Shown: positions 26,312 to 45,950 of the stretch, one piece after another
How the letters are laid out: each line of letters opens with the position of its first letter
Numbering within the stretch: position 1 is the first letter of the stretch
Source of the DNA: Candidatus Bathyarchaeota archaeon
GTDB lineage: Archaea > Thermoproteota > Bathyarchaeia > TCS64
DNA: 64,000 nucleotides
NCBI GenBank assembly: GCA_026014875.1
Contig: JAOZHO010000033.1
Coordinates: forward strand, 13,256 to 77,255
Direction: 5' to 3'
The notes under the pieces: model-generated
What the model was told of the DNA's origin: nothing
Databases searched by the model: none
Seen by the model: only the letters and a program-made list of their open reading frames with translations
Made by a program: the position numbers and the translations under genes

Positions 26312-26422
26312 ATTGTTTAGCTACTGTTCAGCTACTGGATTGCTTGTGTGTTAGATTGGTTGCGCGGTGAAAGATGGAGTCAGTGCTGGTTGGACTCCGC
26401 TTGCGGTCGAGTTCTGGCCTTG

Positions 26423-26438
26423 CCTGGGGCTCCCTTTC
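26423..26438 (+). repeat. degenerate copy (14/16) of the tRNA-Thr 3' end
   Basis: cctggggctccctttc versus the tRNA 3' end cccggggctccatttc. Confidence 0.45.
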
Positions 26439-26460
26439 TACTAGTCTCGGGGGATTGGTG

Positions 26461-27435
26461 TTAGTCTCCGGGTCTGATCTCGGACCTCAGGAACTTCATG
26501 TAGGAGGCGGAGAAGCAGATGACCAGGCCCACCACGAGGGTCGCGATGTTGGCCCAGTTGGCTGCGAGAGCCTCGGTCAGCGTCAGTGTCCTCTGGAACT
26601 CCTGGAATCCCATGCCCTTCATGAAACCCCCGGCTACGCCGAGGATGTCGGTTGCCGCCTCCTCGTAGAGATTCGTCGGTGATATTTTCTCGATGTTAGA
26701 CTGGAGCGCACTTCTCTTCTCCATAGCCTCCATGAACTCGGGGGACATCCTTAACTCCCCCAGGTCTCCCAGGCCTCCATGAACTCCCGTCCTGAATCCC
26801 CCTCCCGGGAGGGGCACCATGGAGCTCGCGACGACGCTCGCCAGTATGCTGATGATGATCGAGAAGATCAGCCAGGTGGCTATCGAGGCCATGATCGAGG
26901 TGTTGGTCCGCTTCGTCAGGACGGAGTACAGAATCCCTAGGCTCAACCAGAACACCAGGTAGACGATGGTCAGCAGGGCTAGGGCCAATATCTTCGTGAC
27001 CTCCCCCAGAGTGGGGCCGAAGCCCAGCATGGGGATCGCCAAGCCGGAGAGAATCCCTATGGTGCCCACCGCAAGGGTCGACAAGGCTGCGGCTCCCGCG
27101 AGGAATTTCCCGTTGATCACCGAGTCTCTGTAGATGGGCTGGCCCATCAGTATGGACAGGGTTCCATTTGCCCGCTCTTTGTTTATAGCGTCGAAGCCGA
27201 GGGCAAGCCCCAGCAGGGGACCGAAGAAGACCATGATCTGGATGAAGGAGAAGCCGAACTGCCCTCCTGAGAAGATGTTGACGAAGCCTGCGTTCTCGTT
27301 GTTCCTGATAAAGTCTACGCCTTGATAGGCGGTGAGTGTCGAGAGGAGCAGAACCACGGCGAACAGGATGAGGAATCGCTTGCTCCCGAACTGGTCTCTG
27401 AGCTCCTTCGCCGCAACGGTGAATGTTCCGGCCAT
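26461..27435 (-). CDS. ABC-2-type transporter permease
   Basis: Six TM helices with typical ABC-2 topology. It is operonic with the ATPase. Confidence 0.7.
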   Translation of the reverse strand: MAGTFTVAAKELRDQFGSKRFLILFAVVLLLSTLTAYQGVDFIRNNENAGFVNIFSGGQFGFSFIQIMVFFGPLLGLALGFDAINKERANGTLSILMGQPIYRDSVINGKFLAGAAALSTLAVGTIGILSGLAIPMLGFGPTLGEVTKILALALLTIVYLVFWLSLGILYSVLTKRTNTSIMASIATWLIFSIIISILASVVASSMVPLPGGGFRTGVHGGLGDLGELRMSPEFMEAMEKRSALQSNIEKISPTNLYEEAATDILGVAGGFMKGMGFQEFQRTLTLTEALAANWANIATLVVGLVICFSASYMKFLRSEIRPGD

Positions 27436-27437
27436 CT

Positions 27438-28373
27438 CTATCCCTCCTCGTAGTACTTCATGAAGATCTCCTCCAGGGAGTACTCCTTGGGCCTCATCAG
27501 CAGGATCACTGCGCCGTTCTCCGTTATCGTCTTGGACACCTCGTAGTCGCTCTCGATTCCTCCATAAACGAAGAGCTGATCTTTCTCTTGGGTCACCGAT
27601 TTGACGCCCTCGATGGACTCTAGGTCCCCGACGAGCCCCGGGGGCACCTCGGAGAGCATGAACTCGACGTTCCTCTCCTCGCCTCCGGTCATCTCCTTGG
27701 TCAGGTTCTCCAGAGTCTCCATTACGATGAGCTTCCCATTGTTGATGATGCCGACCCGGTCGCAGGTCATCTGGACCTCGTTGAGCAGGTGGGAGATAAG
27801 CACGACTGTGAGACCCTGCTCCCTGTTGAGACGGATTATCAGCTCCCGCACCTCCTTGGTGCCCACGGGGTCGAGGCCCAGGGTGGGCTCATCCAGGAAG
27901 ACGATTTTGGGCTGCTTGATCAGGGCCGCGGCTATCCCGACCCGCTGCCTCATCCCCCGGGAGAATTTCTCGTACTTCTCGTCTGCCCATTCGGACATCC
28001 CCACGATCTCCAGCATCTCCCCGATCCTCTCCTCCCGCACATCTTTCGTGAGGTCGTTGAGCTTCCCGATGTAATCCAGGTTCTGGGCTGCCGTAAGCTC
28101 CCCGTAGAGGCTGCTATACTCGGGGAGGATGCTTGCGACGGTTCTGACCTCCCTTGAACTCTCGATGATATCATAGCCTGCGACGACGCCCGTGCCCGTG
28201 GTGGGCACCGAGAGCCCCATGAGCATCAGTATGGCGGTGGTCTTCCCAGCCCCGTTTGGGCCGAGGAAGCCGTAGATCTCTCCCTCCTCCACGACCATGT
28301 CCAGGGAGTCAACAGCGGTAAAATCCCCGTATCTCTTCGTCAGACCGAAGGTCTCTATCACGTTTTCAACCAT
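27438..28373 (-). CDS. ABC transporter ATP-binding protein
   Basis: Walker A GPNGAGKTT. Signature LSRGMRQR. Walker B IVFLDEPT. The start was placed at MVENVIETFGL, where GGAG sits 8 nt upstream. Confidence 0.85.
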   Translation of the reverse strand: MVENVIETFGLTKRYGDFTAVDSLDMVVEEGEIYGFLGPNGAGKTTAILMLMGLSVPTTGTGVVAGYDIIESSREVRTVASILPEYSSLYGELTAAQNLDYIGKLNDLTKDVREERIGEMLEIVGMSEWADEKYEKFSRGMRQRVGIAAALIKQPKIVFLDEPTLGLDPVGTKEVRELIIRLNREQGLTVVLISHLLNEVQMTCDRVGIINNGKLIVMETLENLTKEMTGGEERNVEFMLSEVPPGLVGDLESIEGVKSVTQEKDQLFVYGGIESDYEVSKTITENGAVILLMRPKEYSLEEIFMKYYEEG

Positions 28374-28378
28374 TTTTT

Positions 28379-30490
28379 CTATCTCCTCTTGAATTTCGTG
28401 AAGCCTATCGCGAGGCCGATCACTACTATTATCGCGAGCCCGATGCCGAGGAAGCCCCACGACGTGGACGCATTCGCTGTGACCCTGAGGTCGGCCTCCG
28501 CCGACTCCGCCTGGTCGCTCAGGGCCTGCACCGTGACGATGTAGTCCCCCGCCACGGTGTCGGACGGCGTCTCCGCCGATATGGTGAAAGTTGTCGAGGC
28601 CTTTGGGCCCAGAGAAGCCAGCTGGGAGGGGGTCACCGTTATATCCCAGTCCGCGGGGACGGTCGTCTCGAGGTATAGGGATGTCAGGGGGGAGAGACCC
28701 GCGTTGGTGACCTCGACGCTGAACTCCACCGAGTCCCCGATGGTTATCGTGGTGTAGAGCGTCGAGAGCTCGAGCTCAACATCGTGGGAGCCCACGACGG
28801 TGGCTTTGAGCTCGATCTCCTTGGATAGCGTCCCCTCCGCCGACTCGACCTGGATCACCAGGATATAATCGCCGGTCTCGACGTTGCTCGGAGGCTCCAC
28901 CACTAGGCTAAGATCCTGATAGTCATCCGCCGGAATGTAGAAGCTGGAGACCTTGATGCTCTCCGACTTGAAGACGGCGTCCCAGTTGTCCGGGGCCGAG
29001 ACTACCTTCATTGTGAACTGGTCTTTGCTCTCCCCCATGTTCCAGACTCGTAGGGGATACGTGATGGAGCTCCCCGCCTGAACCGTGACATCCGTGAAGG
29101 TGCCCACGATCTCGATGTCGCTGAAGGACTCCCTCAGGCGGACACCCAGGGCGAGGCTGTCCCCCACGCTCCCCCCCTCGGACTCCACGAGCACCACGAG
29201 GGTGTAACTCCCGGGCTCGTAGTCATCCGGGGGGGTCACCTCGAAGACAAGGCTTGAATATGAACCAGCAGAGATGAGGAGGCTGGAGACCTCCACGGTA
29301 TCGGACCTGAACACGGCGTCCCAGTCCTCGGGGGCTGAGAGAACCGTGAGTATGAACAGGTCGTCGTTGTCCCCCTTGTTCCGGATGGTGAGGGGATAGT
29401 TGATAGCGTTCCCGGCCTCGACTGTCACATCGGTGTACGCGCTCAGGAGCTCCACCTCTCCCTCGGCCTCCTTGAGGCTCACCCTCAACACCAGAGAGCC
29501 CCGCAGCGCTCCTTCCTCAGAGACGGCTCGAATCTCCATCTCATACTCACCAACCAAAGCGGTGATGGCGGGCTCGACCTCAAGGGTGAGAGCCTCAGAA
29601 TCACCGGATTCGAGGAATAGACTACGGATCTCTATGCCGCCCCCCGTGACGAACCTCGTCTCCCATCCCTCGGGGACATCCATATAGAGCTCGACGGTCT
29701 CATCGGAGTCGCCCGTATTAGTGACGGTGACGGGGAAGCTGATGGTTCTCCCCAGCTCCCCGATGATGTAGGGATACGCGGAGGCAAGCGCCGTCTCTGG
29801 CTGGGATGCCTGAGAAGGCTGAATCGTGAACTCCAGAGTGGCGTTCAGGCTGCCGATGACGGTGAGGCTCACGGTCTCTGCCTCAGCCGCGGTCTCCGGA
29901 ACATCCACCTCCAGCGTGAGGCTCAGGCTCCCCGAGTTCAGCTGGGCCCTCCCGATCTCCCCCGTGGAGTCGAGGACCCGGGCCTCCCAGCCCTCCAGAC
30001 TGGCCACGCCGAACTCGATCACCTCGGGCTCGTCCAGGATGCTCACCGTGAAGGGGAAGCTCGCCGTGTCCCCCGGGGAGACGACCCTGCTTAGAACGGA
30101 GGCGGTGAGCCTCAGGTTTTGGAGGAGGACGATCTCCCCCATCTTCACGGGGTCGTTCTCGTCGTCGAAGAACAGCCCGGCGGGCACGTTGATGCCGGTC
30201 TGCTCCCCAGAATATCCGTCCTTCTCGAAGTGGATGGTGTACTGGCCGGTGTCCACGAGGGCGAACCTGAAGTATCCTTCCTCATCGGTGTACTGGGTGG
30301 CCTCGAGGCTTCCCGAGTTCGAGTACGCCATCACCTTGACATCGGTGAGGGGGGCTCCATTCTCATCCAGTACTGTCCCGTGGACATTCCCGGAGCCTGC
30401 CGGGGGAGCGTATACCCAGGCTCCCATCGTCGATGCTAGGACGAGGGAGATCAGGATCATTGTTAGCGTTCCATTCCTCTTGTTAATCAT
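28379..30490 (-). CDS. cell-surface protein (COG1470-like). N-terminal CarboxypepD_reg-like domain, tandem ~95-aa repeats, C-terminal TM anchor
   Basis: Signal peptide. HGTVLDENGAPLTDVKVMAY. Repeated SAPxxWDAVF(R/K)S units. The C-terminus is WGFLGIGLAIIVVIGLAIGFTKFKRR. Confidence 0.7.
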   Translation of the reverse strand: MINKRNGTLTMILISLVLASTMGAWVYAPPAGSGNVHGTVLDENGAPLTDVKVMAYSNSGSLEATQYTDEEGYFRFALVDTGQYTIHFEKDGYSGEQTGINVPAGLFFDDENDPVKMGEIVLLQNLRLTASVLSRVVSPGDTASFPFTVSILDEPEVIEFGVASLEGWEARVLDSTGEIGRAQLNSGSLSLTLEVDVPETAAEAETVSLTVIGSLNATLEFTIQPSQASQPETALASAYPYIIGELGRTISFPVTVTNTGDSDETVELYMDVPEGWETRFVTGGGIEIRSLFLESGDSEALTLEVEPAITALVGEYEMEIRAVSEEGALRGSLVLRVSLKEAEGEVELLSAYTDVTVEAGNAINYPLTIRNKGDNDDLFILTVLSAPEDWDAVFRSDTVEVSSLLISAGSYSSLVFEVTPPDDYEPGSYTLVVLVESEGGSVGDSLALGVRLRESFSDIEIVGTFTDVTVQAGSSITYPLRVWNMGESKDQFTMKVVSAPDNWDAVFKSESIKVSSFYIPADDYQDLSLVVEPPSNVETGDYILVIQVESAEGTLSKEIELKATVVGSHDVELELSTLYTTITIGDSVEFSVEVTNAGLSPLTSLYLETTVPADWDITVTPSQLASLGPKASTTFTISAETPSDTVAGDYIVTVQALSDQAESAEADLRVTANASTSWGFLGIGLAIIVVIGLAIGFTKFKRR

Positions 30491-30534
30491 TACGTCACCT
30501 CGAGTTCAGAGACTTCCATAAGTTTTGCTAATTA

Positions 30535-30586
30535 AACCATTTTTCAGAATCATACCATAATCTACCCCTAATCCTCCTGGCGTCAA
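30535..30586. promoter_or_regulatory. upstream motif catttttcagaatc...cccctaatc, shared with 31090-31130
   Basis: The same 15-mer and 9-mer appear in the upstream regions of two consecutive minus-strand genes. Confidence 0.35.
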
Positions 30587-31056
30587 CCCCGCTTGGACCT
30601 CCCGGCCATTCCCTCCATCAGCTCATCCATCTTCTCGGTGACGTGATCCAGGAGGCCCTGCGACGAGGCGCCCTGGTCGATCAACCCCTGGAGCTCGGGC
30701 TCCAGCCCCTCGATGAATTCGAGCATGGGGGCCATCCGCTCCGCAAAGACTTCCTCTGTCTCGTTGAGCATCGCCTCCATCTGATCCGTCATGTTAACAA
30801 CGAACTCTAGGAGTTCCTCGGGCTCGGCGCTCGCGTTAACAAGTGCCTGGAGCTCGTGGATGACCCCCTGGAAGAAGCCGTCCCTCTCCCCCATGGGTCT
30901 ATCACCATCAGGCGGGAAGGGCCTCTGCTCGTCCTCATGGATCGGCAGTTCCTCCTCCGTTTGCGGAGAGACATTGTTGACCTGGCCCAGATACGCCCAG
31001 CCACCCACCAAGACGAATAGGACCAAGGCTATCGGGATGACCACATTAAGCCTCAA
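30583..31056 (-). CDS. hypothetical membrane-anchored acidic protein
   Basis: N-terminal TM helix followed by an E/L-rich helical region. Confidence 0.45.
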   Translation of the reverse strand: MRLNVVIPIALVLFVLVGGWAYLGQVNNVSPQTEEELPIHEDEQRPFPPDGDRPMGERDGFFQGVIHELQALVNASAEPEELLEFVVNMTDQMEAMLNETEEVFAERMAPMLEFIEGLEPELQGLIDQGASSQGLLDHVTEKMDELMEGMAGRSKRG

Positions 31057-31196
31057 TTCTGCTCAAGGGTCCCTGAGTCCGAGATGATTAAAAATCATTT
31101 TTCAGAATCTCCCCCTAATCATTACAGAATCTTGAGCCCCTGGAATCATTTAATACGATATCCGTGATACCTGAACTGAGATTTCCACCAAGGTAT

Positions 31197-31526
31197 ATGC
31201 CGATGTCTGCCCGGGACCGAACCTACAGGTACCTCCTCCAGTGGCTGATAGGGGGCACCAGGGGCGGCGTGAACCGGGGCCGCATCATCAACGCCCTCAG
31301 AGAGCAGCCCATGAACGCGAACCAGCTGGGAAAACTTCTAGAGCTCGACTACAGGACCATCAGGCACCACCTGGAAGCCCTGGAGAAGCACAAGCTCCTC
31401 GCCTCGATGGGGGACCGCTACGGCAAGATGTACTTCGTCTCCATGGAGCTCGAGGAGCACCTCGACGTTTTTGATGAGATTTGGGTGGAAATTGGAAAAA
31501 GGTTGAAAAAGGAGGATAATGAGTGA
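31197..31526 (+). CDS. winged-helix transcriptional regulator
   Basis: GGTRGGVNRGRIINALREQPMNANQLGKLLELDYRTIRHHLEALEKHKLL. Confidence 0.55.
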   Translation: MPMSARDRTYRYLLQWLIGGTRGGVNRGRIINALREQPMNANQLGKLLELDYRTIRHHLEALEKHKLLASMGDRYGKMYFVSMELEEHLDVFDEIWVEIGKRLKKEDNE

Positions 31527-31960
31527 GACTGAGAATGAGGAATAGGCCCCGTGCAGCCCTGACGCTCCTAGCGATCATGCTGGTCAGCGTATCGTCCGTC
31601 TGGGTCGCCCACGGGGAGTTCTCCAAGGGAGACTGGGATTTTGACATGCACGAGCTGGAGCGGCTCAGGGACGAGCTGCCCAGAGTCCTCACCATCAAGA
31701 TGGCCTTCACCACCCTCACATCGATCCTCCTCATCGGGCTCATCGTGGTACACGTCAGAGTCTATCGCGAGACGGGGACCCGGTTCAGCCTGGGGCTAGT
31801 AATCTTCTCAGTGGCCCTCATCCTCTACACCCTCGCCTCTAACCCGATGCTCCACAGGCTCGTGGGCTTCAGGAGGATCGGTCTGGGCCCCCTGCTGATG
31901 CTCCCTGACCTCTTCATGGTCGTCGCAGCAGCCATACTCCTCTACCTCAGCAGACAGTAA
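31523..31960 (+). CDS. hypothetical integral membrane protein, coupled to the upstream regulator
   Basis: Three TM helices. The start overlaps the regulator stop. Confidence 0.5.
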   Translation: MRLRMRNRPRAALTLLAIMLVSVSSVWVAHGEFSKGDWDFDMHELERLRDELPRVLTIKMAFTTLTSILLIGLIVVHVRVYRETGTRFSLGLVIFSVALILYTLASNPMLHRLVGFRRIGLGPLLMLPDLFMVVAAAILLYLSRQ

Positions 31961-31963
31961 ACC

Positions 31964-31980
31964 CCGCCCGGGGCTCCATC
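31964..31980 (+). repeat. exact 17-nt copy of the tRNA-Thr 3' end (cccgcccggggctccat)
   Basis: Direct match to 26120-26136. It begins 4 nt after the TAA of the preceding gene. Confidence 0.55.
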
Positions 31981-32053
31981 ATCGGTGCGGGAGCCGTGTA
32001 TGTAGTGATCGGACCCGTACACGGGTTCATTATCTACTGGGCTCCTAACGAAA

Positions 32054-32434
32054 ATGGGTGGTGTTTTGGATCCGTTTTTGAGGGGTTTCAACGAGAGTTT
32101 GATGGACACTAATCTATCGGAGATCGAGGTTCAGAATCTGAAGGGGATAACGGCGATCTTCAGTAAAGAGATCAAATCGAAGCTTGATGCCCAGTTCGGT
32201 TTCATACTGGGTTTTTCGTATGCGAAGTTCCTGATGCAATTCCTCATTCTCAAGAATAGTATGCCCACGAAGGAGGAGACGAAAGAGTTCTTCGAGCTTC
32301 TGAAGAGGCGCCACCCTGAGATTGTCTCGATCCTGAGGGATGTGAGGGTCGCCGATATCGTTGAACGGAACGAGTCTGTTGCATCCTTCGAAGAACATGA
32401 AGTAGAACCGGATAGCGAGGACCCAACCTTCTAA
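32054..32434 (+). CDS. hypothetical protein
   Basis: ORF in a lower-GC stretch. No family was recognised. Confidence 0.35.
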   Translation: MGGVLDPFLRGFNESLMDTNLSEIEVQNLKGITAIFSKEIKSKLDAQFGFILGFSYAKFLMQFLILKNSMPTKEETKEFFELLKRRHPEIVSILRDVRVADIVERNESVASFEEHEVEPDSEDPTF

Positions 32435-32481
32435 CATCGCGCGCGATCAGTAAAACGCCTACCAGAAAACCTATCTCAACG

Positions 32482-33012
32482 ATGGGGGGAGGTTATCCCA
32501 TGTTAGAGAAAATTCTGGATGAGGTGAACGAGGCCAACAGGAGCCGGAAGACAATCTCCAAGATGGAGTTGGGAGAGATCGACCAGTTCCTGGTTCACTC
32601 CAGGGTGGGGAGGATCGGCATATCCCTTGATGATAACCCCTACGTTGTTCCCGTCGGCTACTGCTACGAGGGCGGTGAGATTTTCTTCCATTCCTGCTTC
32701 AGCGGGCTGAAGATGAGGAGCATGGCACGAAACCCCAAAGTCTGCTTCCTGGTCGACGAGTCCCTCTCGGACGGCTCCATGTACAAGAGCGTGATAGTCA
32801 GGGGGTCCGTGGAGATCATCGATGACGGGGAGAGGATGCTGCCGTACCTGCAGAGCCTCATTAACAAGTACAGGGTCCCCGTGGGCTTCGACGAGTACAT
32901 CGGCAGGCCAGGGCGGAGCAGGGAGAAGGAGATGGCGGTAGTCCGAGTATGTGTGATCACCCCGAGTGAGATCACCAGTAGGAAGATGGTGCGCGCGCTT
33001 ACGCGCGCGTGA
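32482..33012 (+). CDS. pyridoxamine 5'-phosphate oxidase-family (FMN-binding split-barrel) protein
   Basis: GRIGISLDDNPYVVPVGYCYEGGEIFFHS...CFLVDE is a PNPOx-like pattern. Confidence 0.65.
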   Translation: MGGGYPMLEKILDEVNEANRSRKTISKMELGEIDQFLVHSRVGRIGISLDDNPYVVPVGYCYEGGEIFFHSCFSGLKMRSMARNPKVCFLVDESLSDGSMYKSVIVRGSVEIIDDGERMLPYLQSLINKYRVPVGFDEYIGRPGRSREKEMAVVRVCVITPSEITSRKMVRALTRA

Positions 33013-33061
33013 AAAGGCTGATGGAGAATAAATTTATCTTATTACAGGTTATGTTCCGTCT

Positions 33062-33790
33062 ATGATCGACTACAATAAAATATCTGGGCATTACACACAA
33101 CACCGCCAAAAGGTACATCCAGGGATATTGAAGGAACTCCTATCCGGATCTGAATATCAAAACAATTCGACTGTTCTCGAAGTGGGCTGCGGAACAGCGA
33201 ATTACATCATCGAAATACAATCCCTCACAGGAAGCAGATGCTGGGGCATAGACCCATCAGAAAAAATGCTATCAGTGGCCAGAGAAAGGTCAAAAACAAT
33301 AGATTTTAAAAATGGCAGAGGAGAGCAACTGGATTTCTCAAATGATTTCTTCGATTTCATATTCTCCGTAGATGTGATCCATCACGTGGAAGGTCATCTA
33401 GAATACTTTCAAGAGGCTTTTCGGACGTTAAAACCGGGAAATCGAATTTGTACCGTTACGGATTCCGAGTGGACACTCAGCAATCGGGTACCCCTGGCAA
33501 CTCACTTCCCAGAGACCGTTGAGGTCGAATTGGCCAGATATCCTAGGATTCATTATTTAACCGGGCTGATGAGGGAAGCGGGATTCACGGACATTCAGGA
33601 TAAACTCGTAGAGTTCTCATTCCACATGAAGGATATTCAGGCATTTCGAGATAGAGCATATAGTTCATTACACCTGATTTCAGAAGAAGCGTTTCAGAGA
33701 GGAATCACTCGATTGGAGGACGAATTAGATGAAAAAGGGTATATTCAAAATATTTCCAGATACACGCTTCTATGGGGAAGAAAAAATTAA
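33062..33790 (+). CDS. class I SAM-dependent methyltransferase
   Basis: SAM motif VLEVGCGTANY and distal motif LKPGNRI. The GC content is markedly lower than in the surroundings. Confidence 0.8.
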   Translation: MIDYNKISGHYTQHRQKVHPGILKELLSGSEYQNNSTVLEVGCGTANYIIEIQSLTGSRCWGIDPSEKMLSVARERSKTIDFKNGRGEQLDFSNDFFDFIFSVDVIHHVEGHLEYFQEAFRTLKPGNRICTVTDSEWTLSNRVPLATHFPETVEVELARYPRIHYLTGLMREAGFTDIQDKLVEFSFHMKDIQAFRDRAYSSLHLISEEAFQRGITRLEDELDEKGYIQNISRYTLLWGRKN

Positions 33791-33973
33791 AATCGCGCGC
33801 GCCTGTTCTGGAAATCGTGTGTGAGGAAAATAAAATTTTACCACTGAGAGGCAGGCGGAGTGCCTCCGCTCCTGTAGAGAGGGGAAGCCGTCTAATCCCC
33901 CTTTTTCTAGAGGGCAGCCTAAGGAGGGAATAACTCTTGTCTGGAAGTGGAGCGCGGGCCTTCCTTTATGCGT

Positions 33974-34792
33974 TCATTCACTCCTCGGCTCACTGAGGGG
34001 GACGCTGAGGCTTTCAAACCCTTTGACGAAGTCGGACATCCAGGCCACCACATCCTCCAACAGCGTCTCCGCGAACTCGGGAGTTATCTTGGAGTAGTCG
34101 CTGGTGCCTGGCACGTCGTCGGGGTGGGCCTCCGTCATGGAGCCGGTCTCAGATACGTCGACGGTGCTCAGCGGTATCCTAACGAGACCGTCTTTGAACC
34201 TCGCGAGCCCCGATCTGACAAGCTGGATCTCATCATCCACCTGCCTCGTCGGCGTCAACACCGCCCGGTCCATCCTCACAGCCTCGGGCCTCGACGCCAG
34301 CATGAGGGCGGTCTCGGCGTAACCTGCGTGCTCCTCGGCGGGGTGCCCGTGTATGGACCTGCTTCGCAGTATGTCCCACCACTGGACGACGGCGCAGAGG
34401 GTCCCCATGTCCTCCCGGGCCTCCTTGATGGCGCCGGTGATGGCGCCGAGGTTCCCCCCATGACCGTTCATGAAGACCACCCGATCTATTCCATAGCGGT
34501 CAAGGCTCTCGATGATCTCGTAGACCACCTCCTGGAGGGTCTCCGGGGCGAGAGTTATCGTCCCGGGGAACTCCTTATGGTGGCCCGAGACGCCGTATGG
34601 CATGACAGGCAGCACCAGAGCGCCCGTCCTCTCCCCAACCTTCCTCGCGATGTTCCAGGCCTGGATCCAGTCCGCCCCGACCCCTAGGTGAAGCCCGTGC
34701 TGCTCTGTCGCGCCTATCGGCACGATGGCGAGCCTCGTCTCACCGAACTTCTCCTCGGCCTCCGGCCAGGTCATATTAGATAGCTCGAACAT
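33974..34792 (-). CDS. creatininase-family amidohydrolase (archaeal ArfB-like)
   Basis: LAIVPIGATEQHGLHLGVGADW...NGHGGN is the creatininase fold signature. Confidence 0.75.
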   Translation of the reverse strand: MFELSNMTWPEAEEKFGETRLAIVPIGATEQHGLHLGVGADWIQAWNIARKVGERTGALVLPVMPYGVSGHHKEFPGTITLAPETLQEVVYEIIESLDRYGIDRVVFMNGHGGNLGAITGAIKEAREDMGTLCAVVQWWDILRSRSIHGHPAEEHAGYAETALMLASRPEAVRMDRAVLTPTRQVDDEIQLVRSGLARFKDGLVRIPLSTVDVSETGSMTEAHPDDVPGTSDYSKITPEFAETLLEDVVAWMSDFVKGFESLSVPLSEPRSE

Positions 34793-34905
34793 GATTTACT
34801 CCTCTTAAGAAGAGGACAATATGTCGAATAATAATGTGTGAGGTGTAAAGTGCCTTTGTCCCACGTACGCCTGTTAACGGACGCCTAAAGTCACGCTGGT
34901 AACTA

Positions 34906-35090
34906 GATGTCCAGCGTCTTCCCCGGGTTCTCGTTCACCATCATCCCGATCTCACCGTCGCTGATGCCGTTCTCCCTCATCACACGAATGAATATCCGTA
35001 GCCCCTCAGGCGACGGATTGTGCACCTAACCCAAGCCCGTGGCCTGGTCCAAGAAAGCGATGGTGGGCAGCTCATATCCGGCGGTGACTA
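34906..35090 (-). pseudogene. frameshifted C-terminal remnant of an amidohydrolase-superfamily gene
   Basis: The minus strand reads ...ITLVTAGYELPTIAFLDQATGLG. After a frame shift it reads VHNPSPEGLRIFIRVMRENGISDGEIGMMVNENPGKTLDI*. There is no upstream start. Confidence 0.3.
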
Positions 35091-35149
35091 AGGTGATGCT
35101 GGACGTTCTAAGGGACGGTGGGTGATGAAGTTTAACCCAAAGAGGTTAC

Positions 35150-35188
35150 AGGTACTTTTCAATCTCAAGTTGGAAACCCGCCCGGCGC
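35150..35188 (+). repeat. 36-nt intergenic repeat, copy C
   Basis: ggtacttttcaatctcaagttggaaacccgcccggcgcg. Confidence 0.55.
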
Positions 35189-35312
35189 GCGTTTCAGTTT
35201 ACATGTCTTTAATGGTTCTTTTACGTGTATCAGATGCCGAATTCGCAGTGAACTCTGAACGTGCGCGGGTGAGAAAGTGAATTAAATGAACTGGACTTGT
35301 GTTTGATCGTCT

Positions 35313-36857
35313 ATGAGAGGCGATAATAATGGGTTTTTCGGGGTTTGTGCAGTCCTGACTCTATTACTCGTCTCGTCGTCTCTCCCGTTCCTGAGCTGGG
35401 GGGCATCCGCCTCCGACCTGGATGAGAGAATCCAGAGGGTTGAGAATGGGTTATACGAACGCTCTTGGGAGGGTCTGCCTATCGGAGAAAAGTTGACGCT
35501 CGCGGAACGCATGGAATATTACAAAGTCCCAGGGGTCAGCATCGCCGTCATCAATGATTTTCAAATTGAATGGGCCAAGGGCTATGGCGTTCTAGAAACT
35601 GGAGGAAATCAGCCCGTAACCCCCGACACTCTTTTCCAAGCGGCTTCCATCAGCAAACCCGTTACTGCTGCGGCAGCCCTGCACTTTGTGGAACAGGGTC
35701 TCCTTGACCTCGACGAAAACGTCAACGATAAGCTAGTTTCTTGGAAAGTGCCTGAGAATGAGTTGACAGAACAGGAAAAGGTTACGCTTCGCCGTCTACT
35801 AAGCCACACCGCAGGAACTAGTGTCCACGGATTCAGAGGGTACGCATATAATGAGGAGATTCCCACCCTCCAGCAGATACTTGATGGGGAGCCGCCGGCC
35901 GATAATCCACCAATTCGCGTCGACATGGTTCCAGGGACTAAATGGCGGTACTCGGGTGGCGGCATCACGATCGTGCAACAGCTGCTCAAGGATATTATAG
36001 GCAAACCCTTTCCTGATATCATGCAGGAAGCAGTCCTCGAGCCAACAGGAATGATGGCTAGCACATTTAAACAGCCACTCCCTGAGGACCGCAGAGCTAC
36101 AGCAGCCACTGCGCACAATATCAATGGTGGGCCCCTCGGGGGAAAATGGCATATCTACCCTGAGATGGCGGCAGCGGGACTATGGACAACCGCTTCTGAT
36201 CTCGCACGCTTCGGCATCGAGATGATGCTTTCCTACCGTGGAGAATCGAATAAAATTCTCTCCGAGGAGATGGTGGAAGCAATGCTTTCTCCTCAGGTCG
36301 AGGGGTTCATGGGATTGGGATTTACGACACAAGGCGAAGGCCTAGATCATTGGTTTGGGCATGTCGGGGGTAATGAGGGATTTAGATGCATCATATTGGC
36401 CTATCCAGAACGAGGGTATGGCATTGTGGTGATGACAAATGGGGATGCAGGCGATTCGCTTTACAACGAGATTCTGATGAGCGTAGAGTTAGAATATAGC
36501 TTGTTCAACACAGACATGACGATATATGTGAAGGATAACGAGGGCAAGGCTATCAGTGGCGCTTCTGTGACCTCCATCTCCCAGCCGGAGGGTCAAGAGA
36601 CGCTGAGAGGCGCCACGGACTCCGATGGTTGTATGATCTTCACGAATGTGAGGCAGGGCGACTACGCGATCCAGGCGAGCAAGAGCGGATACACGACGGA
36701 TAAGGGAACATTGAACGCCATAATAGAGGAGACAGCTGAGTTAACCATCCTCCTCGAGAAGGAAGCGAAAGGCATCCCCGGCTTCCCTTACGAGTCAATC
36801 ATACTCGGGATAGTGATGGTGACCTTCCTGTTATGGGGGATGAGAAGAAGAACGTAG
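35313..36857 (+). CDS. beta-lactamase-family serine hydrolase with C-terminal CarboxypepD_reg-like domain and PGF-CTERM sorting signal
   Basis: Signal peptide. SxxK motif SISK. Domain DGCMIFTNVRQGDY. The C-terminus is GIPGFPYESIILGIVMVTFLLWGMRRRT. Confidence 0.8.
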   Translation: MRGDNNGFFGVCAVLTLLLVSSSLPFLSWGASASDLDERIQRVENGLYERSWEGLPIGEKLTLAERMEYYKVPGVSIAVINDFQIEWAKGYGVLETGGNQPVTPDTLFQAASISKPVTAAAALHFVEQGLLDLDENVNDKLVSWKVPENELTEQEKVTLRRLLSHTAGTSVHGFRGYAYNEEIPTLQQILDGEPPADNPPIRVDMVPGTKWRYSGGGITIVQQLLKDIIGKPFPDIMQEAVLEPTGMMASTFKQPLPEDRRATAATAHNINGGPLGGKWHIYPEMAAAGLWTTASDLARFGIEMMLSYRGESNKILSEEMVEAMLSPQVEGFMGLGFTTQGEGLDHWFGHVGGNEGFRCIILAYPERGYGIVVMTNGDAGDSLYNEILMSVELEYSLFNTDMTIYVKDNEGKAISGASVTSISQPEGQETLRGATDSDGCMIFTNVRQGDYAIQASKSGYTTDKGTLNAIIEETAELTILLEKEAKGIPGFPYESIILGIVMVTFLLWGMRRRT

Positions 36858-36867
36858 AGTGCGCACG

Positions 36868-36910
36868 CAGTGCTTTTCTGCCTCAAGTTAGTAGCCCGCC
36901 CGGGGTTTCC
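36868..36910 (+). repeat. 36-nt intergenic repeat, copy A
   Basis: cagtgcttttctgcctcaagttagtagcccgcccggggtttcc. It lies 11 nt after the lactamase stop. Confidence 0.55.
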
Positions 36911-37171
36911 GGTCGTCTTGACCTTAGCGTCGCTCATTCCTATCACCAACTGTGCTATCCACGCTGCGTATGCGCTCGCGGATGTGAAAGTGTACGCGCG
37001 CGCATGAAGAATGTATAAATTATTGCCCTCAAATTTATGATCTATTCTCTAGCGCGCAGTTTATATCATGCTTCTCGCTTGGCGTGTTATATCATGAGAA
37101 AAATAAAAAAAACAACTTGAAACTCGATTCGATCTATAAACTCCTGGCCGCCTCTCGGCGTCTGAGCTTAT

Positions 37172-37294
37172 CTAGAACCTTCTTGGCGGCCTGTGCTTAG
37201 CAAAGCACTCACGGCAGTAAACCGGCCTGCCCTCTGTTGGCTTGAAGGGGACTTCCGCCTCCTTCCCGCAATCAGAGCAGATGACCTTGGTCAT
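37172..37294 (-). CDS. small zinc-ribbon protein (CxxC-x17-CxxC)
   Basis: MTKVICSDCGKEAEVPFKPTEGRPVYCRECFAKHRPPRRF. Confidence 0.45.
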   Translation of the reverse strand: MTKVICSDCGKEAEVPFKPTEGRPVYCRECFAKHRPPRRF

Positions 37295-37453
37295 CTCACG
37301 CGGGCCGCGGTCTGATCCACCGCGCCTATCTCTATAACCCAATACTTTCACTCCTATTCTGTGTGTATGCTCAGAACGCCTCACGGTGTTCTCCGCACAC
37401 TGCCCACGCATGGGCGATTCTCCCTTTTAAATCATTGCGCACGCGCGCGGGGG

Positions 37454-38260
37454 TCACTTGGTCGCTTTGACGCTGTACATGAGGGGGAGGTCGTATCCGG
37501 GGAGTCTGCTGTAGCCGTCCTCCCCTGGCTCCATGAAGGCAAACTGAGTGTCGTCGACGCTGAAGGGGTACTCCCCGAGCTCCCGGATAGTGAGGCCGGC
37601 GCCGATGAGGGCGTTAACCACCTCGCTCATGGGATGGGCCCATTCATAGGAGCCCTTGTTTTCCACCTTCGCGTCGGGATCAGCGTAGGAGCCCTCTGCC
37701 TCGTAGTAGTCGGGCTCCTTTCCCTGCCAGTAGCGGTACTTGACCTTGAGCTCCGAGGGAAACTCGTAGTCGAAGACCCACATGAACGGGTGGAATTCGG
37801 CCATGAAGAAGGTGCCCCCGGGTCTGAGGTAGCGGGAGACGATATCCGCCCACGCCTCCATGTCGTGGAGCCAGCAAAGGACCCCGTAGCTGGTGAAGAC
37901 GACGTCGAACTTTCCGTCGAGATGTTTGGGGAAATCGTAGACGTTGCTGCAGATGAACTCGGCATCTACGCCGATCCTTGCGGCGAGGCTCCTAGCGAGC
38001 TCGATGGCGGTTTCGCTGAAGTCGACCCCGGTGACCCGGGCTCCGAGGCGCCCCCAACTCAGCGTGTCCAGGCCGAAGTGGCACTGGAGATGGAGAAGGG
38101 ACTTCCCTGAGACGTCCCCCAGGGCCTCGAGCTCGATACTGTGGAGGCTGTTCTTACCGGCGATGAACCCATCCAGATCGTACTCGTCCGACTTTACGTG
38201 GATGCCGACCAGCTCGTTCCAACGCCGCTTGTTCACGGTGTAGTACTTCTCCATGGACAC
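37454..38260 (-). CDS. class I SAM-dependent methyltransferase (paralog 1)
   Basis: SAM-binding VTGVDFSETAIELA. It is roughly 85 percent identical to the 45150..45950 product. Confidence 0.8.
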   Translation of the reverse strand: MSMEKYYTVNKRRWNELVGIHVKSDEYDLDGFIAGKNSLHSIELEALGDVSGKSLLHLQCHFGLDTLSWGRLGARVTGVDFSETAIELARSLAARIGVDAEFICSNVYDFPKHLDGKFDVVFTSYGVLCWLHDMEAWADIVSRYLRPGGTFFMAEFHPFMWVFDYEFPSELKVKYRYWQGKEPDYYEAEGSYADPDAKVENKGSYEWAHPMSEVVNALIGAGLTIRELGEYPFSVDDTQFAFMEPGEDGYSRLPGYDLPLMYSVKATK

Positions 38261-38380
38261 CCCTCTTCCGAGTTGATACGCTATCTGACTTCGACCTTAT
38301 TAATCGGGATGTATTGAGAAACGAGCCGCGCGCGCAGGTAAATGAGATGCAATAAAACGCGCGCGTTCCCAAAATGTCAT

Positions 38381-38424
38381 AGGTGCTTTTCTACCTCAAG
38401 TTGAAAGCCCGCCCGAGGCTCCAT
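38381..38424 (+). repeat. 36-nt intergenic repeat, copy B. It ends with a 16/17 copy of the tRNA-Thr 3' end
   Basis: aggtgcttttctacctcaagttgaaagcccgcccgaggctccat. Confidence 0.55.
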
Positions 38425-38572: not shown

Positions 38573-39580
38573 TTGCTAGATCTGGACGCACTGAAGAAGG
38601 GAGGAATCTCCGTCCAGGAGGCGGAGAACATCCTGTCCCTCGACGGCCTCCCCCAGACCATACTGGACATCGCAGGCTCTCTCAGGGATGAACGCCTCGG
38701 GCGGGAGCTCCGGTTCCACATCCCCCAGCCCCGGTTCCCCAGCGTCTCAGTCACCGGCGCCAAGTGCGCCCTGAGATGCGAGCACTGCGGAGGCCACTTC
38801 CTCACCGGGATGGAGAACACCGACACCCCGGAGAAGCTCAAAGGCTTCTGCTCCAGGCTCGACGCCGAGGGAGGAGTCGGAGTCCTCGTGAGCGGCGGCT
38901 CGGACCCCCGGGGCCGTGTCCCCCTCGAAGGATTCCTCGACGCAATCACATGGGTGAAGGAGAACACCTCACTCATAGTCAACCTCCACACCGGGCTCCT
39001 GGACCCCCGGCAAGCGGAGGCCATAGCCTCCACCGGGGCCGACATTGTCTCCACGGACGTCGTGGGGAGCGACGACACCATCAAACGGGTCTACGGGCTG
39101 GACGCAACCGTCGAAGACTACGCCGAGACCCTGATCAATCTGAGAGACGCCCGGGCGCCCCACATCGTCCCCCACGTCTGCGCAGGGCTGGACTTCGGGG
39201 AGATCAAGGGAGAGGCCAGAGCCCTGGAGATCATGAAGGACATCGACCCCGAGACCATCGTCATCCTCGCCCTGATCCCGACGAAGGGGACGGGCATGGA
39301 GGACGTGACGCCCCCCTCCGTCGAGGCAATCGCCAAGACAGTGGCCGCGGCGAGGCTGATGCACGGCGACGCCAGCGTCGCCATGGGGTGCATGCGCCCC
39401 AGAACCGAGAAGCCCCTGGGGGAGAGGCTCGCACTCATGGCCGGCGCCGACAGGATCGTCCTCCCCTCCAGATCCACGGTGGAGTACGCCCTCAGAGAAG
39501 GATTCACTGTGAAGCACCTGGACGGCTGCTGCGCCATACCCAAAGGGCTAGAACACCTCGCCCTGAGGGATGAGCCCTAG
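38573..39580 (+). CDS. radical SAM protein, LipS-type (BioB-like) lipoyl synthase component
   Basis: CxxxCxxC motif (CALRCEHC). It flanks a lipoate-protein ligase gene. The start is TTG. Confidence 0.6.
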   Translation: MLDLDALKKGGISVQEAENILSLDGLPQTILDIAGSLRDERLGRELRFHIPQPRFPSVSVTGAKCALRCEHCGGHFLTGMENTDTPEKLKGFCSRLDAEGGVGVLVSGGSDPRGRVPLEGFLDAITWVKENTSLIVNLHTGLLDPRQAEAIASTGADIVSTDVVGSDDTIKRVYGLDATVEDYAETLINLRDARAPHIVPHVCAGLDFGEIKGEARALEIMKDIDPETIVILALIPTKGTGMEDVTPPSVEAIAKTVAAARLMHGDASVAMGCMRPRTEKPLGERLALMAGADRIVLPSRSTVEYALREGFTVKHLDGCCAIPKGLEHLALRDEP

Positions 39581-42833: not shown

Positions 42834-43020
42834 GCCTCGCCCCCAAGTCGAGTACCCGTAGAGCCGAGCAGAATCTAGGCGTTACAGAGTGTAATGCCAT
42901 GAGAGAGTATCCAGATCAAGCCCCGACTTCACCCGAACGAAGATATCCCACGGCGTCGAATTCCCAATGATAAAATAATCTGATGCAAAAGGGTACTTGT
43001 CGAACCTTCTAGTTGATGGC

Positions 43021-43128
43021 ATGAACCTTGGAACCATCATAGGCCTCGTCACCGCCTTCATCATACTTCTGCTACTATTCATTTTCAGCGTGATAGCCTG
43101 GGAACTGTTCAGACGCGACTTCGATTGA
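43021..43128 (+). CDS. 35-aa single-TM peptide (not in ORF track)
   Basis: MNLGTIIGLVTAFIILLLLFIFSVIAWELFRRDFD. Confidence 0.25.
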   Translation: MNLGTIIGLVTAFIILLLLFIFSVIAWELFRRDFD

Positions 43129-43166
43129 CGGGAATACGCTTGTCAGAGAGGTCGCGCCCATCCGTT

Positions 43167-44474
43167 CTAGGAGACCATGTTCCTGGGCTCTTGGATGAAG
43201 AAGGCCGGGACCAGGGAGATGAGCGTCATCGCCGCGATGTATGTGAAGCCCCAGTTGAAGCTGTAGAACTCGACGATGTAACCGAAGATCGCGCTGGAGA
43301 AGGAGGCGATGGTGAACCCTATGGTGAAGTAGAACCCGAAGATCTGGTCCAACTGGGTCCGTTCCACGCTGTCGCTTAAAACGCTCTGCACCACCACGGT
43401 CTGCACCAGGAATCCTATGGCGAAGAGGAGCGCTGCGAGGGCCCAGAACCCCGTCACGTAGTTCAGGAGGAAGTAGCCCAGGCCGCTCATCGCGGTTACC
43501 CCGATGATTAGGGGCTTGCGGTTCACCCTGTCGGAGACGTTCCCCCAGAAAAAGGGACCGAAGATGCCCCCCGCGAGCAATATGCTGTAGAGGAGGCCGC
43601 TCTTCTCAGCGGTGAAGCCCAAGATGTCGATGAAGTAGAGGGGGAGGAAGGCCCGGACCCCCATCCTGAAGGCCATTACGCTCCGGAGGACGCTGATGGA
43701 GAGCACGTTCCGGTTCCTCAACGCCTCCCGGAGACTGGCCCAGGAAAGGGAGTCCCTAGTCTTCGCCTCCGAGGAGCTCGACCCCTTTACGAAGAAAATG
43801 AGGATCAGTGAGAACACGAGAGCGGGGAGGGAGAGGATCGCTAAGGCCGGCCTCCAGCCCATCAACGTCAGCATATACGCCGTTATGAGGGGGGTGAACG
43901 TGAACGCCAAGGAGGGAATAGACTGGTTGAGCCCCAGCATCCGCCCCCGCTTCGAGGGATCGGTCGCCGAGGTGACCAAGGAGGCGCCCACGGGGTGCTG
44001 GGGGCTGCTCCCGATACCCCCGAGGATCCTGAACCCGAAGAACTGGAGGAAGCCCCGGCTCATCCCGGCCAGGATGTTCATCACCGCGTTGATCAGGTTA
44101 CCGACGCCGAGGAGCATCCTTCCGCTGGTCCAGCGCCGAAGGTACCCGACGAACATCTGGGGGAACCCGGTCGCGAAGGTGTTGGCGGACCGGAGGAGGC
44201 CCAGCTGGGAGTAGGAGAGCGAGAACTCGGCCATGATCTCGGGGTAGAGCATGGGCATCGCCCCGCTGATCATGTGGTTCAGCATGTGCAGTATGATCGC
44301 GACCCAGACCATGAGCGATGACTGTTTATCCTTCTTTTCGGGTGTATCCACATCGATCAATCCGAATAGAGGAGAGAGATACAGCAGGCCCCATATATGG
44401 TTAGCTGTCCGGTTCGCCGGGTCACAGGCTCGAGACCTCGGGCAAGGATATTGGATCAGGTTTAGAGGAAACAC
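43167..44474 (-). CDS. MFS transporter
   Basis: Twelve TM helices. The true start may be the internal Met near 44312. Confidence 0.7.
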   Translation of the reverse strand: MFPLNLIQYPCPRSRACDPANRTANHIWGLLYLSPLFGLIDVDTPEKKDKQSSLMVWVAIILHMLNHMISGAMPMLYPEIMAEFSLSYSQLGLLRSANTFATGFPQMFVGYLRRWTSGRMLLGVGNLINAVMNILAGMSRGFLQFFGFRILGGIGSSPQHPVGASLVTSATDPSKRGRMLGLNQSIPSLAFTFTPLITAYMLTLMGWRPALAILSLPALVFSLILIFFVKGSSSSEAKTRDSLSWASLREALRNRNVLSISVLRSVMAFRMGVRAFLPLYFIDILGFTAEKSGLLYSILLAGGIFGPFFWGNVSDRVNRKPLIIGVTAMSGLGYFLLNYVTGFWALAALLFAIGFLVQTVVVQSVLSDSVERTQLDQIFGFYFTIGFTIASFSSAIFGYIVEFYSFNWGFTYIAAMTLISLVPAFFIQEPRNMVS

Positions 44475-44492
44475 CTGAACAGGATCATGGCG

Positions 44493-45050
44493 TCACAGCT
44501 TCACGCTGATCTCGATACCATCCGACCCGCTCCTATGGAAAGTGCTCTCGTATTTTCCCGAGTCCCTCACGTGACCCAGGTAGCCCCTCATCGATCTCGA
44601 CATGAAGCCAACGTTGTCCGCGACCACCACTCCCCCGCTGCGAAGTTTATCCTCGACGAGCCGGAGATAGTCGAGGTACTGGTGCTTCGCGGCGTCCAGG
44701 AAGACCATGTCGAAGGAGCCTTCCAGGGTCGGGATGATCTCCAGGGCGTCCCCCACCAGAACTTTAATTATGGCGGTCAGCTCGGCCCGGGAGATGTTGG
44801 CCCTCGCCTGCTCGGCCTCGTCCCTGTCGTACTCGATGGTGACGATCTCCGAGCCCTCCCCGAGCTCTCTCCCCATGAGTATCGCGGAGTAGCCCACGAG
44901 GGTGCCCACCTCCAGGATGCGCCTCGGCCGGTATCTACGCACAGCCTCGATGAGAACCCGCCCCCGGCTGGGCCCGATTATGGGGAGATACCGACCATGG
45001 GCTGACCTCTCGATCTCCTCGAGGATCTCATCGGCCTTGCTCTGCGCCAT
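44493..45050 (-). CDS. class I SAM-dependent O-methyltransferase (family 3-like)
   Basis: ILEVGTLVGYSAI...VFLDAAKHQY. Confidence 0.7.
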   Translation of the reverse strand: MAQSKADEILEEIERSAHGRYLPIIGPSRGRVLIEAVRRYRPRRILEVGTLVGYSAILMGRELGEGSEIVTIEYDRDEAEQARANISRAELTAIIKVLVGDALEIIPTLEGSFDMVFLDAAKHQYLDYLRLVEDKLRSGGVVVADNVGFMSRSMRGYLGHVRDSGKYESTFHRSGSDGIEISVKL

Positions 45051-45149
45051 CAGGTCCGGGTTTCCCGGGGGCCCGGATAAGGGTTATGCGGCCTCTTGTT
45101 TCTATCAGGGGGTGTTGAGTGCGACAGGGCCCTAAACGGTGCTGGAGGG

Positions 45150-45950
45150 TCACTTCGTCGCCTTGATACTGTACATGAGGGGGAGGTCGTACCCGGGGAG
45201 CCTGCTGTAGCCGTCCTTTCCGTTCTCCATGAAGGCCATCTGAGTGCCGTTGACGCTGAAGGGGTACTCCCCGAGCTCCCGGATTGTGAGGCCTGCGCCG
45301 ATGAGGGTGTTCACCACCTCGCTCATGGGATGAGCCCAGTTGTACATCCCCCGGTTCTCCACCTTGGCGTCCTGATCGGCGTATGTGCCCTCGGACTCGT
45401 AATAGTCGGGCTCCTCCCCCTGCCAGTAGCCGTACTTGATCACGAGCTCCGAGGGATGCTCGTCATCGAAGACCCACATGAAAGGGTGGAACTCGGCGAC
45501 GAAGAATGTGCCCCCGGGCCTGAGGAAGCGGGAGACTATTCGCGCCCACTCCCCCATGTCGGGGAGCCAGCAGAGGGCCCCGTAGCTAGTGAAGACTATG
45601 TCGAACTCGGCGTCGAGGCGCTCGGGGAGATCGTAGACGTTGCTGCAGATGAACTCGGCGTCGACGCCTATCCTCTTAGCGATCTCCTGCGCCAGCTCGA
45701 CAGCCGGCTCGTTGAAGTCGACACCGGTCACCTTCGCTCCCAGCCGGGCCCAGCTCAAAGTATCCAAGCCAAAGTGGCACTGGAGGTGGAGAAGGGACTT
45801 CCCGGAGACGTCCCCCAGGGCCTCGAGTTCGATGCTGTGAAGACTGTTCTTGCCAGCGATGAACCCATCCAGATCGTACTCGTCCGACTTTGCGTGGATA
45901 CCGACCAGCTCGTTCCAGCGCCGCTTGTTCATGATGTAATATTTCTCCAT
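45150..45950 (-). CDS. class I SAM-dependent methyltransferase (paralog 2)
   Basis: Near-identical to 37454..38260, including the upstream ttattaatcg region. Confidence 0.8.
   Translation of the reverse strand: MEKYYIMNKRRWNELVGIHAKSDEYDLDGFIAGKNSLHSIELEALGDVSGKSLLHLQCHFGLDTLSWARLGAKVTGVDFNEPAVELAQEIAKRIGVDAEFICSNVYDLPERLDAEFDIVFTSYGALCWLPDMGEWARIVSRFLRPGGTFFVAEFHPFMWVFDDEHPSELVIKYGYWQGEEPDYYESEGTYADQDAKVENRGMYNWAHPMSEVVNTLIGAGLTIRELGEYPFSVNGTQMAFMENGKDGYSRLPGYDLPLMYSIKATK

Follow-up and report, generated by a model that had tools for sequence, protein, structure and literature searches.

Repeated integration at tRNA genes is a familiar route to genomic islands. Bathyarchaeia are abundant in sediments, and their mobile elements are little documented. 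The closest described systems are arrays of integrated archaeal elements at re-used sites, with attachment (att) sites of a median 17 bp in thaumarchaeal elements (PMC6563490); the tycheposon islands of Prochlorococcus, anchored at tRNA genes, where newer elements push older ones inward and partial tRNAs and integrase fragments lie scattered among niche-gene cargo (bioRxiv 10.1101/2020.12.28.424599); and integron cassette arrays, reported in Archaea too (PMC9668308). We analysed a 64-kb stretch of contig JAOZHO010000033.1 from a Candidatus Bathyarchaeota archaeon (the window), in which three copies (A, B and C) of a short repeat lie downstream of a tRNA-Thr gene. In each unit a conserved arm of 26 nt (GGTGCTTTTCTACCTCAAGTTGGAAG) precedes a core drawn from the tRNA-Thr 3' end, which measures 9 nt (A), 11 nt (B) or 16 nt (C). 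We estimate a probability of about 0.75 that these repeats are attR-type junctions of small integrative elements inserting into the 3' end of tRNA-Thr in Bathyarchaeia, because of the adjacency of an integrase in related contigs, an inverted repeat shared with the integrase junction, and the occurrence of the same right flanks joined either to the tRNA or to arm plus core.

The family shares with arrays of the pNOB8 type, such as the cryptic integrated elements of Thaumarchaeota, in which integration does not disrupt the recombinase gene (PMC6563490), a tRNA 3'-distal target, an intact integrase gene by attL and re-use of the site. The window differs in holding no integrase and in having one to four ordinary genes from one junction to the next; a near-invariant 26-nt arm at the junctions occurs across varied cargos, and runs of (CG)n divide the island into cassettes of one gene each. 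The repeated portion of 16-17 nt matches the reported median of 17 bp, and the att-like role proposed in an earlier sequence-only reading of the window held up, the repeats being tied to tRNA-Thr and behaving as attachment-site sequences of integrative elements. Anchoring at a tRNA and partial tRNAs recall the tycheposon islands, as does an integrase fragment in a related contig (L013; labels L004-L050 denote metagenome or homologue loci compared with the window). The archaeal host, an unrelated Xer-like zinc-ribbon integrase, much smaller modules and the (CG)n junctions differ from tycheposons, and no replication module was seen. Similarity to integrons (PMC9668308) extends to a conserved platform site beside a tyrosine recombinase gene in relatives, strings of single-gene cassettes, a recombination-site-like sequence near the stop codon and presence/absence polymorphism. 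Unlike integrons, the 42-nt unit is conserved in sequence and has no attC-like hairpin on either strand, the cassettes have apparent TATA-like boxes of their own and lie in both orientations, and the integrase (that of L011) scored 39.3 bits on the NCBIfam integron integrase model, for which the cut-off is 265.

The features of the window considered here are as follows.

26063-26138, + strand: intact tRNA-Thr(CGT) gene (ARAGORN; Rfam tRNA 65.6 bits), the proposed target (attB, now attL)
26139-38424, no strand: variable genomic island of 12.3 kb, from the tRNA to copy C, with metabolic and surface cargo
about 26380-26432, + strand: degenerate tRNA-Thr 3' half with T-arm remnants kept (...CCTGGGGCTCCC)
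31941-31979, + strand: copy D, a diverged arm (TCTACCTCA...AAAC) and an exact 17-nt core at 31963-31979
35151-35185, + strand: copy A, arm at 35151-35176 and a 9-nt core (CCCGCCCGG); 43.6 bits in the profile search
36869-36905, + strand: copy B, arm at 36869-36894 and an 11-nt core (CCCGCCCGGGG); 44.2 bits in the profile search
38382-38424, + strand: copy C, arm at 38382-38407 and core at 38408-38424 (CCCGCCCGAGGCTCCAT); 55.1 bits in the profile search

Copies A, B and C are co-oriented, intergenic and well past chance level. A consensus scan of the window matched the + strand at 35152-35184, 36870-36902 and 38383-38415 with no further match at up to three mismatches, and none of 100 dinucleotide-preserving shuffles of the window yielded any consensus match; the repeats are therefore real, as previously claimed, and the family is widespread in metagenomes. 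Within a 36-nt frame A and B share 28 positions, A and C 29, and B and C 31, with 26 common to all three. The sequence-only reading had this last figure right and had assigned the 31 of 36 to A and B, where it belongs to B and C. It had also placed all copies in intergenic DNA, and after annotation with open reading frames (ORFs) and Pfam no copy lay within a convincing gene. Copy A lies between a creatininase gene (33974-34792, -) and a beta-lactamase-family gene (35313-36857, +); its right end is cut by a (CG) run (35185-35191), and with its flanks it is also found in L026 and L034 at 98.6% identity. Copy B begins 12 nt past the stop of the beta-lactamase-family gene and is followed by TTTCCGGTCG, which is similar to the flank downstream of tRNA-Thr in L004. 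Copy C, which has a methyltransferase gene (37454-38260, -) on its left and a radical-SAM gene (38573-39580, +) on its right, is the final junction of the island, and its core matches the tRNA end at 16 of 17 nt, carrying one G-to-A variant. Copies A and B are spaced 1718 nt apart and B and C 1513 nt, with genes in between, which excludes a CRISPR (clustered regularly interspaced short palindromic repeats) array, against which the spacing had been cited before; the sole Rfam CRISPR match, offset from the repeat, is noise at 17.9 bits against a 50-bit cut-off.

The core shared between tRNA and repeats (CCCGCCCGGGGCTCCAT, 26123-26139) comprises the last 16 nt of the tRNA plus one. Copies of the tRNA end start at 31963, 35177, 36895 and 38408, all on the + strand and holding the last 9-17 nt, and altogether five partial tRNA-Thr ends lie in direct orientation 3' of the intact gene in the window. 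Copy D, the degenerate half and the metagenome spread of the family had gone unnoticed before. Copy D was found by repeat search; it is a weak profile match (model positions 10-43, 12.6 bits), and part of its arm overlaps the last codons of an ORF (31523-31960). The profile search of the window gave no strong copy beyond A, B and C.

Reference genomes and metagenomes were scanned with a 22-base pattern spanning the repeat. The metagenomes returned 33 contigs, three of them chance-looking and 30 with family copies, so that the consensus is present elsewhere as about 35 genuine, nearly identical copies (AGGTGCTTTTCTACCTCAAGTTGGAAGCCCGCCCGGGGCTCCA). A scan of 596 Gb of species-representative genomes, a set from which the source genome is absent, gave three chance-like bacterial hits only. 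Positions that the pattern left unfixed (GGTG, TAC, GGAAG, GGGGCTCCA) were nonetheless conserved, with a sharp left edge at AGGTG and a gradual decay through the last nine core bases. A profile built from the copies recovered 38 strong copies (43-60 bits) among the loci compared, the three of the window included. Contigs with several copies carry two or three, 0.7-2.3 kb apart and always as direct repeats, and wherever the tRNA-Thr gene is visible (the window, L011, L013 and L025) the copies lie downstream of it on its strand. Viral contigs held neither the repeat nor an integrase homologue, and exact-sequence look-ups of two window proteins gave no record. Literature searches on tRNA-associated integrases of Bathyarchaeia, on integrons in Archaea and on GCGCGCGC cassettes returned no description of the repeat family or of (CG)n junctions; the family is new within a known kind of tRNA-anchored island. 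Other partial or odd tRNAs accompany some copies: in L039 (1240-1275) a copy is preceded, at a distance of 8 nt, by the 3' end of another tRNA (…GGTTCGAATCCCACCGAGGCCA), and in L011 (1366-1441) two copies flank a tRNA-Ser(GCT)-like gene.

The CoA-transferase adjoining the tRNA has homologues with 70-97% identity, and those with a named source are almost all from Bathyarchaeota/Bathyarchaeia, which indicates that the host of the window is a member of Bathyarchaeia. Contigs with a CoA-transferase of 90-91% identity are syntenic with the window over 11 kb upstream and carry different genes past the tRNA, and in L004-L009 synteny stops at 26139/26140, the last base of the tRNA. The island that begins there has a G+C content of 0.45-0.62 (26-39 kb) versus 0.60-0.69 in its flanks. 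Its cargo, assigned with Pfam, includes an ABC transporter and a surface protein, a regulator of the ArsR type, a PNPOx-like protein and two methyltransferases. It also encodes members of the creatininase and beta-lactamase families, the second bearing an archaeal C-terminal anchor, and a protein of 79 aa with a CxxC-x17-CxxC motif.

An integrase was found beside the tRNA in related contigs. L011 contains, in order, the end of the CoA-transferase gene, tRNA-Thr(CGT), the gene of a 404-aa tyrosine recombinase that begins about 45 nt past the tRNA, a small zinc-finger gene, several small ORFs and two canonical repeat copies. This recombinase (Pfam Phage_integrase, 8.9e-21) is a full ORF beside attL with visible GARxxE, HxxR and Y motifs, and it belongs to a family of about 400 aa that is XerA-like with a C-terminal zinc ribbon. 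XerA provides both its nearest solved structures (9e-18) and its closest NCBIfam model. It differs from the archaeal XerA/dif system in scoring 116 bits against a cut-off of 220, in the extra zinc ribbon, in the position of its gene at a tRNA junction in variable DNA, and in a site that is a tRNA end and not dif. In archaeal integrases of the SSV type the att site lies inside the gene, which integration splits in two; the L011 gene is unsplit and the core lies outside it. L042 carries, in order, the C-terminal part of the integrase, the zinc-finger gene, a non-coding stretch of about 430 nt and a canonical arm plus core, and this element would measure about 2.2 kb in total if the tRNA abuts the integrase as in L011. 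The non-coding stretch between zinc-finger gene and arm (L042 2290-2720; L011 about 4900-5290, minus strand) looked conserved by eye in the two contigs, and the L011 version ends in a degenerate arm (GGTGCTTATTCTACCTC). In L013 (315-524), two (CG) runs enclose a 70-aa integrase fragment that has 80% identity to residues 109-178 and looks like a decayed integrase module.

The integrase has 1725 homologous proteins at E<=1e-20, the named ones coming from Bathyarchaeia, Nitrososphaerales, Hadarchaeales and others. Every homologue context fetched had the integrase directly after a tRNA-Thr gene, with the same tRNA 3' end and a conserved flank on the integrase side (CACCATAAGTATAAAAGCCC or AACCACAAATATAAAAGCACC), as follows.

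L043 and L045: 95% identity to the L011 integrase, tRNA-Thr(TGT) directly upstream
L044: same arrangement as L043, the contig ending before the tRNA
L046 and L047: 73% identity, tRNA-Thr(GGT) with an intron directly upstream
L048, L049 and L050: 70% identity, tRNA-Thr(GGT) with or without introns directly upstream

The arm is linked to this integrase by the geometry of the junctions. Its first 15 nt (GGTGCTTTTCTACCT) recur in inverted form at the integrase junctions, with one and the same offset (7-21 nt beyond the core) in three integrase subgroups, matching at 12 of 15 positions in L011 and in L046 (each reached by 1 of 5000 shuffles) and at 11 of 15 in L043 (19 of 5000). Flanks of tRNA-Thr genes without an integrase gave no inverted match to the 15-mer. 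A reconstructed attP would thus read 15-nt repeat, 11 nt, 16-nt core, 6 nt, inverted 15-nt repeat; tyrosine-recombinase sites usually have repeat, core and inverted repeat in this order. The arrangement is centred within CCCGCCCGG, the sole core part kept by all copies (A holds just these nine bases).

Under the attR interpretation, the left 26 nt of each repeat would be element DNA and the 9-17 nt on its right (CCCGCCCGGGGCTCCA+T), which in the tRNA extend from the 3' strand of the T-stem to CCA, would be the core and the site of strand exchange. In the circular element, arm, core and the sequence before the integrase gene would form attP (arm-core-CACCATAAGTATAAAAG), with GGTGCTTTTCTACCT and its inverted copy (AAGTATAAAAGCCCC) flanking the core as presumed integrase binding sites; both the binding of the arm and the exact place of strand crossover we infer from the sequence arrangement. 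A XerA-like tyrosine recombinase would join attP with the tRNA, and integration would restore the tRNA end at attL and leave arm plus core at the far end. Repeated insertions, loss of integrase modules and rearrangement partly at (CG)n runs could then have given rise to the 12.3-kb island, and modules without an integrase may have remained mobile.

Alternative junctions are the traces that recombination within the core would be expected to leave. The right flank of copy D (31980-32444, including an ORF at 32054-32434) follows tRNA-Thr itself in L006-L009 (83% identity) and a canonical copy in L014 (90% identity). The ABC-transporter block (26455-30382) is preceded by a canonical copy in L036 and by the degenerate tRNA half in the window, the homology to L036 ending at 26455. 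L013 has the core and right flank of B and not the arm, diverging at 36893, the arm/core boundary, and in L024 and L028 the arm, core and right flank of B are present with a different left flank. The right flank of copy C is related to flanks in L010, L042 and L007. The G-to-A variant in its core is the natural 3' end of tRNA-Thr(GGT) in L046 and L047, which is expected if cores are exchanged with tRNA genes.

Several observations weigh against the attR interpretation. No recombinase domain was found with Pfam in the ORFs of 26-42 kb, and tblastn of the L011 integrase against the window gave no match. The 6-10 kb that follow the integrases in L043, L046 and L048 gave no arm, and no attR was found downstream of the more distant homologues (L043, L046, L048 and L050) in the DNA examined. 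None of the contigs showed the junction of a circular attP (arm-core-CACCATAAG). From copy to copy the modules measure only 1.5-3.2 kb and hold ordinary cargo, so a plain stacking of complete elements needs many deletions. Stacking would also not predict the right flanks of B, C and D, which resemble flanks downstream of the tRNA and not the integrase side of an older element. L023 is without window positions 35043 to about 36860 (copy A and the beta-lactamase-family gene), with ends off the repeats. Finally, more than half of the copies have a conserved AT-rich TATA-like box (GGGGATAAAATTTTAACCCCAAAATGTTATA) 6-35 nt ahead of them, often with (TG)n and a (CG) run before the box (window 35120-35150 and 38366-38381; also L017, L020, L024, L031, L037 and L040), and this could mean that the unit is transcribed. 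This box might be a promoter or a part of the attachment-site arm.

A possible but unlikely alternative is that the island is no graveyard of dead elements but an integron-like cassette platform anchored at tRNA-Thr. Single genes with promoter-like sequences would be captured, shuffled and inverted at palindromic (CG)4-5 runs, and blocks carrying a portable 42-nt arm plus core would be moved in trans by the tRNA-Thr integrase. Under either interpretation, (CG)3-5 runs mark gene-cassette boundaries of the island at the following positions.

32438-45, 32991-98, 33002-09, 33794-802 and 35185-91
36995-7003, 37052-57, 37442-49, 38327-35 and 38358-65

The motif CGCGCGCG matched seven times in the window, always within 32438-38365, against a shuffle mean of 1.2. 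The runs lie at gene boundaries, often 0-4 nt past a stop codon, and occur likewise in L006 and L010-L040; in the metagenome loci fetched, 81 distinct runs are at least 7 nt long and share no consensus outside the run itself. Among the island contigs, 34 of 150 internal homology endpoints fell within 20 nt of a (CG) run, where random placement gave 7.5 expected and at most 14 in 200 randomisations. A cassette with the 79-aa zinc-finger gene lies between two runs in the window (37004-37441) and is absent in L013 (about 1624) and L023 (about 980), where the same neighbours are joined by a single run; in L011 (5221-5557) and L042 (2658-2995) it lies beside the integrase, in the opposite orientation relative to the tRNA. 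The (CG)n runs are a second junction type of the island that delimits single-gene cassettes, and possibly its more novel feature.

It is improbable that the unit is a small gene, in which an archaeal promoter (GGGGATAAAATTTTAACCCCAAAATGTTATA) drives an RNA of about 42 nt ending in the tRNA-Thr 3' end, or an outward transcript, the copies being conserved for RNA or promoter function and not as recombination scars. We retain this explanation because of the TATA-like box in more than half of the copies and because box and unit form a block of about 100 nt between (CG) runs, ending at CCA, in L017, L031, L037 and L040. The abrupt start of conservation at AGGTG and + strand genes 75-150 nt downstream of A, C and D also fit. 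The box is, however, absent from B, from several metagenome copies and from the integrase-element copy in L042, and in L036 and at the orthologous window site the unit faces opposite-strand genes. Rfam, at gathering and permissive thresholds, returned only four tRNAs and noise, no consistent oligo-T terminator follows the unit, and the 3' truncation varies (A after 9 nt, B after 11 nt). Folding of the copies and the consensus on both strands gave z values of -1 to +2 and differing structures, so the folding of each copy proposed earlier revealed nothing significant or common to the copies. An RNA role would also leave the inverted-repeat relation to the integrase junction unexplained. A structured small RNA, tRNA-like RNA or split-tRNA half is not supported, there being no Rfam match, shared fold or T-arm, and ARAGORN calling nothing there; a split-tRNA 3' piece was rejected because the window holds no complementary partner, its tRNA-Thr is intact and loci carry many copies. 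A 4-bp hairpin in the arm was dropped because its register in B differs from that in A and C, and a tRNA-Leu-like anticodon loop (CTCAAGT) in the arm has unpaired flanking bases.

Decayed tRNA-Thr pseudogene fragments, which would have arisen when the tRNA gene was duplicated locally and lost internal sequence without any mobile element, are a very improbable origin of the copies. The last 9-16 nt are indeed tRNA sequence, and the claim of the sequence-only reading that the 3' half is the tRNA-Thr end stands for this portion; the idea of an internally deleted tRNA 3' half is not supported, only these bases being demonstrably tRNA. The T-arm is 'missing' since the left 26 nt are most simply element DNA. 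The similarity of the arm to the anticodon arm (CCTC--AAGTTG), from which an anticodon-arm origin had been proposed, cannot be distinguished from chance because 8-10% of shuffled arms reach it. L006 does carry a tRNA-Thr whose anticodon stem has been fused with the acceptor end by an internal deletion, which would fit such an origin. Unlike decaying pseudogenes, however, the 26-nt arm is nearly invariant over 30 contigs with differing flanks, and integrase adjacency and inverted-repeat geometry link it to an element. A tRNA-derived miniature element, the other suggestion made earlier, was not borne out, since the unit is without terminal inverted repeats or target duplications and keeps a single orientation downstream of tRNA-Thr; elements like miniature inverted-repeat transposable elements or short interspersed nuclear elements were likewise rejected, with no inverted arms flanking the unit, unrelated left flanks and one orientation at tRNA-Thr islands. 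Chance similarity or mis-annotated coding sequence, favoured by short ORFs (45-61 aa) that overlap A and B, is next to impossible given the shuffling result, some 35 further copies with flanks unconserved on both sides, and a 42-nt block of conservation with sharp edges that is not a coding pattern.

The degenerate half at about 26380-26432 is an older type of partial tRNA repeat. L036 has a canonical arm plus core at the orthologous position, and L004 (11511-11709) is homologous to this region of the window. Together with similar partial copies that retain the T-arm in L004 (about 11650-11707) and L027, it constitutes a second family distinct from arm plus core. A G/T-rich non-coding stretch 3' of the tRNA (26139-26432; L004 11297-11707; L027 about 685-718) ends in a degenerate tRNA-Thr 3' half and contains a CCCCTCCCC-GT..TG motif that recurs after several cores. 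The deletion in the L006 tRNA-Thr(CGT) (11213-11250) removes 37 nt, joining GCGGCAG to GGGGCTCCA, and ARAGORN calls nothing there; the gene is intact in the sister contigs L007-L009, and the deletion may be real or an assembly artefact. Two paralogous methyltransferase genes, one in the island (37454-38260) and one 7 kb beyond (45150-45950), match a single gene of L006-L008 at 88.7% and 84.2% nucleotide identity. Positions 42951-45950 show synteny with the distal part of the island region in L006, and the plastic zone may therefore extend past copy C.

The analysis gives, from sequence alone, the target of the element family (a 3' end common to tRNA-Thr isoacceptors), its probable attP layout and its integrase. 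As positions 26.1-38.4 kb of the window are a variable island, the methyltransferase, hydrolase, transporter and surface-protein genes there are to be read as accessory. Most of what may be new here is the cassette architecture without an integrase, together with the (CG)n junctions. If the cassette platform were real, it would give an abundant, uncultured class of archaea a cassette system whose recombination sites differ from attC, and if the (CG)n runs were confirmed as recombination sites, they would constitute a new way of assembling gene arrays.

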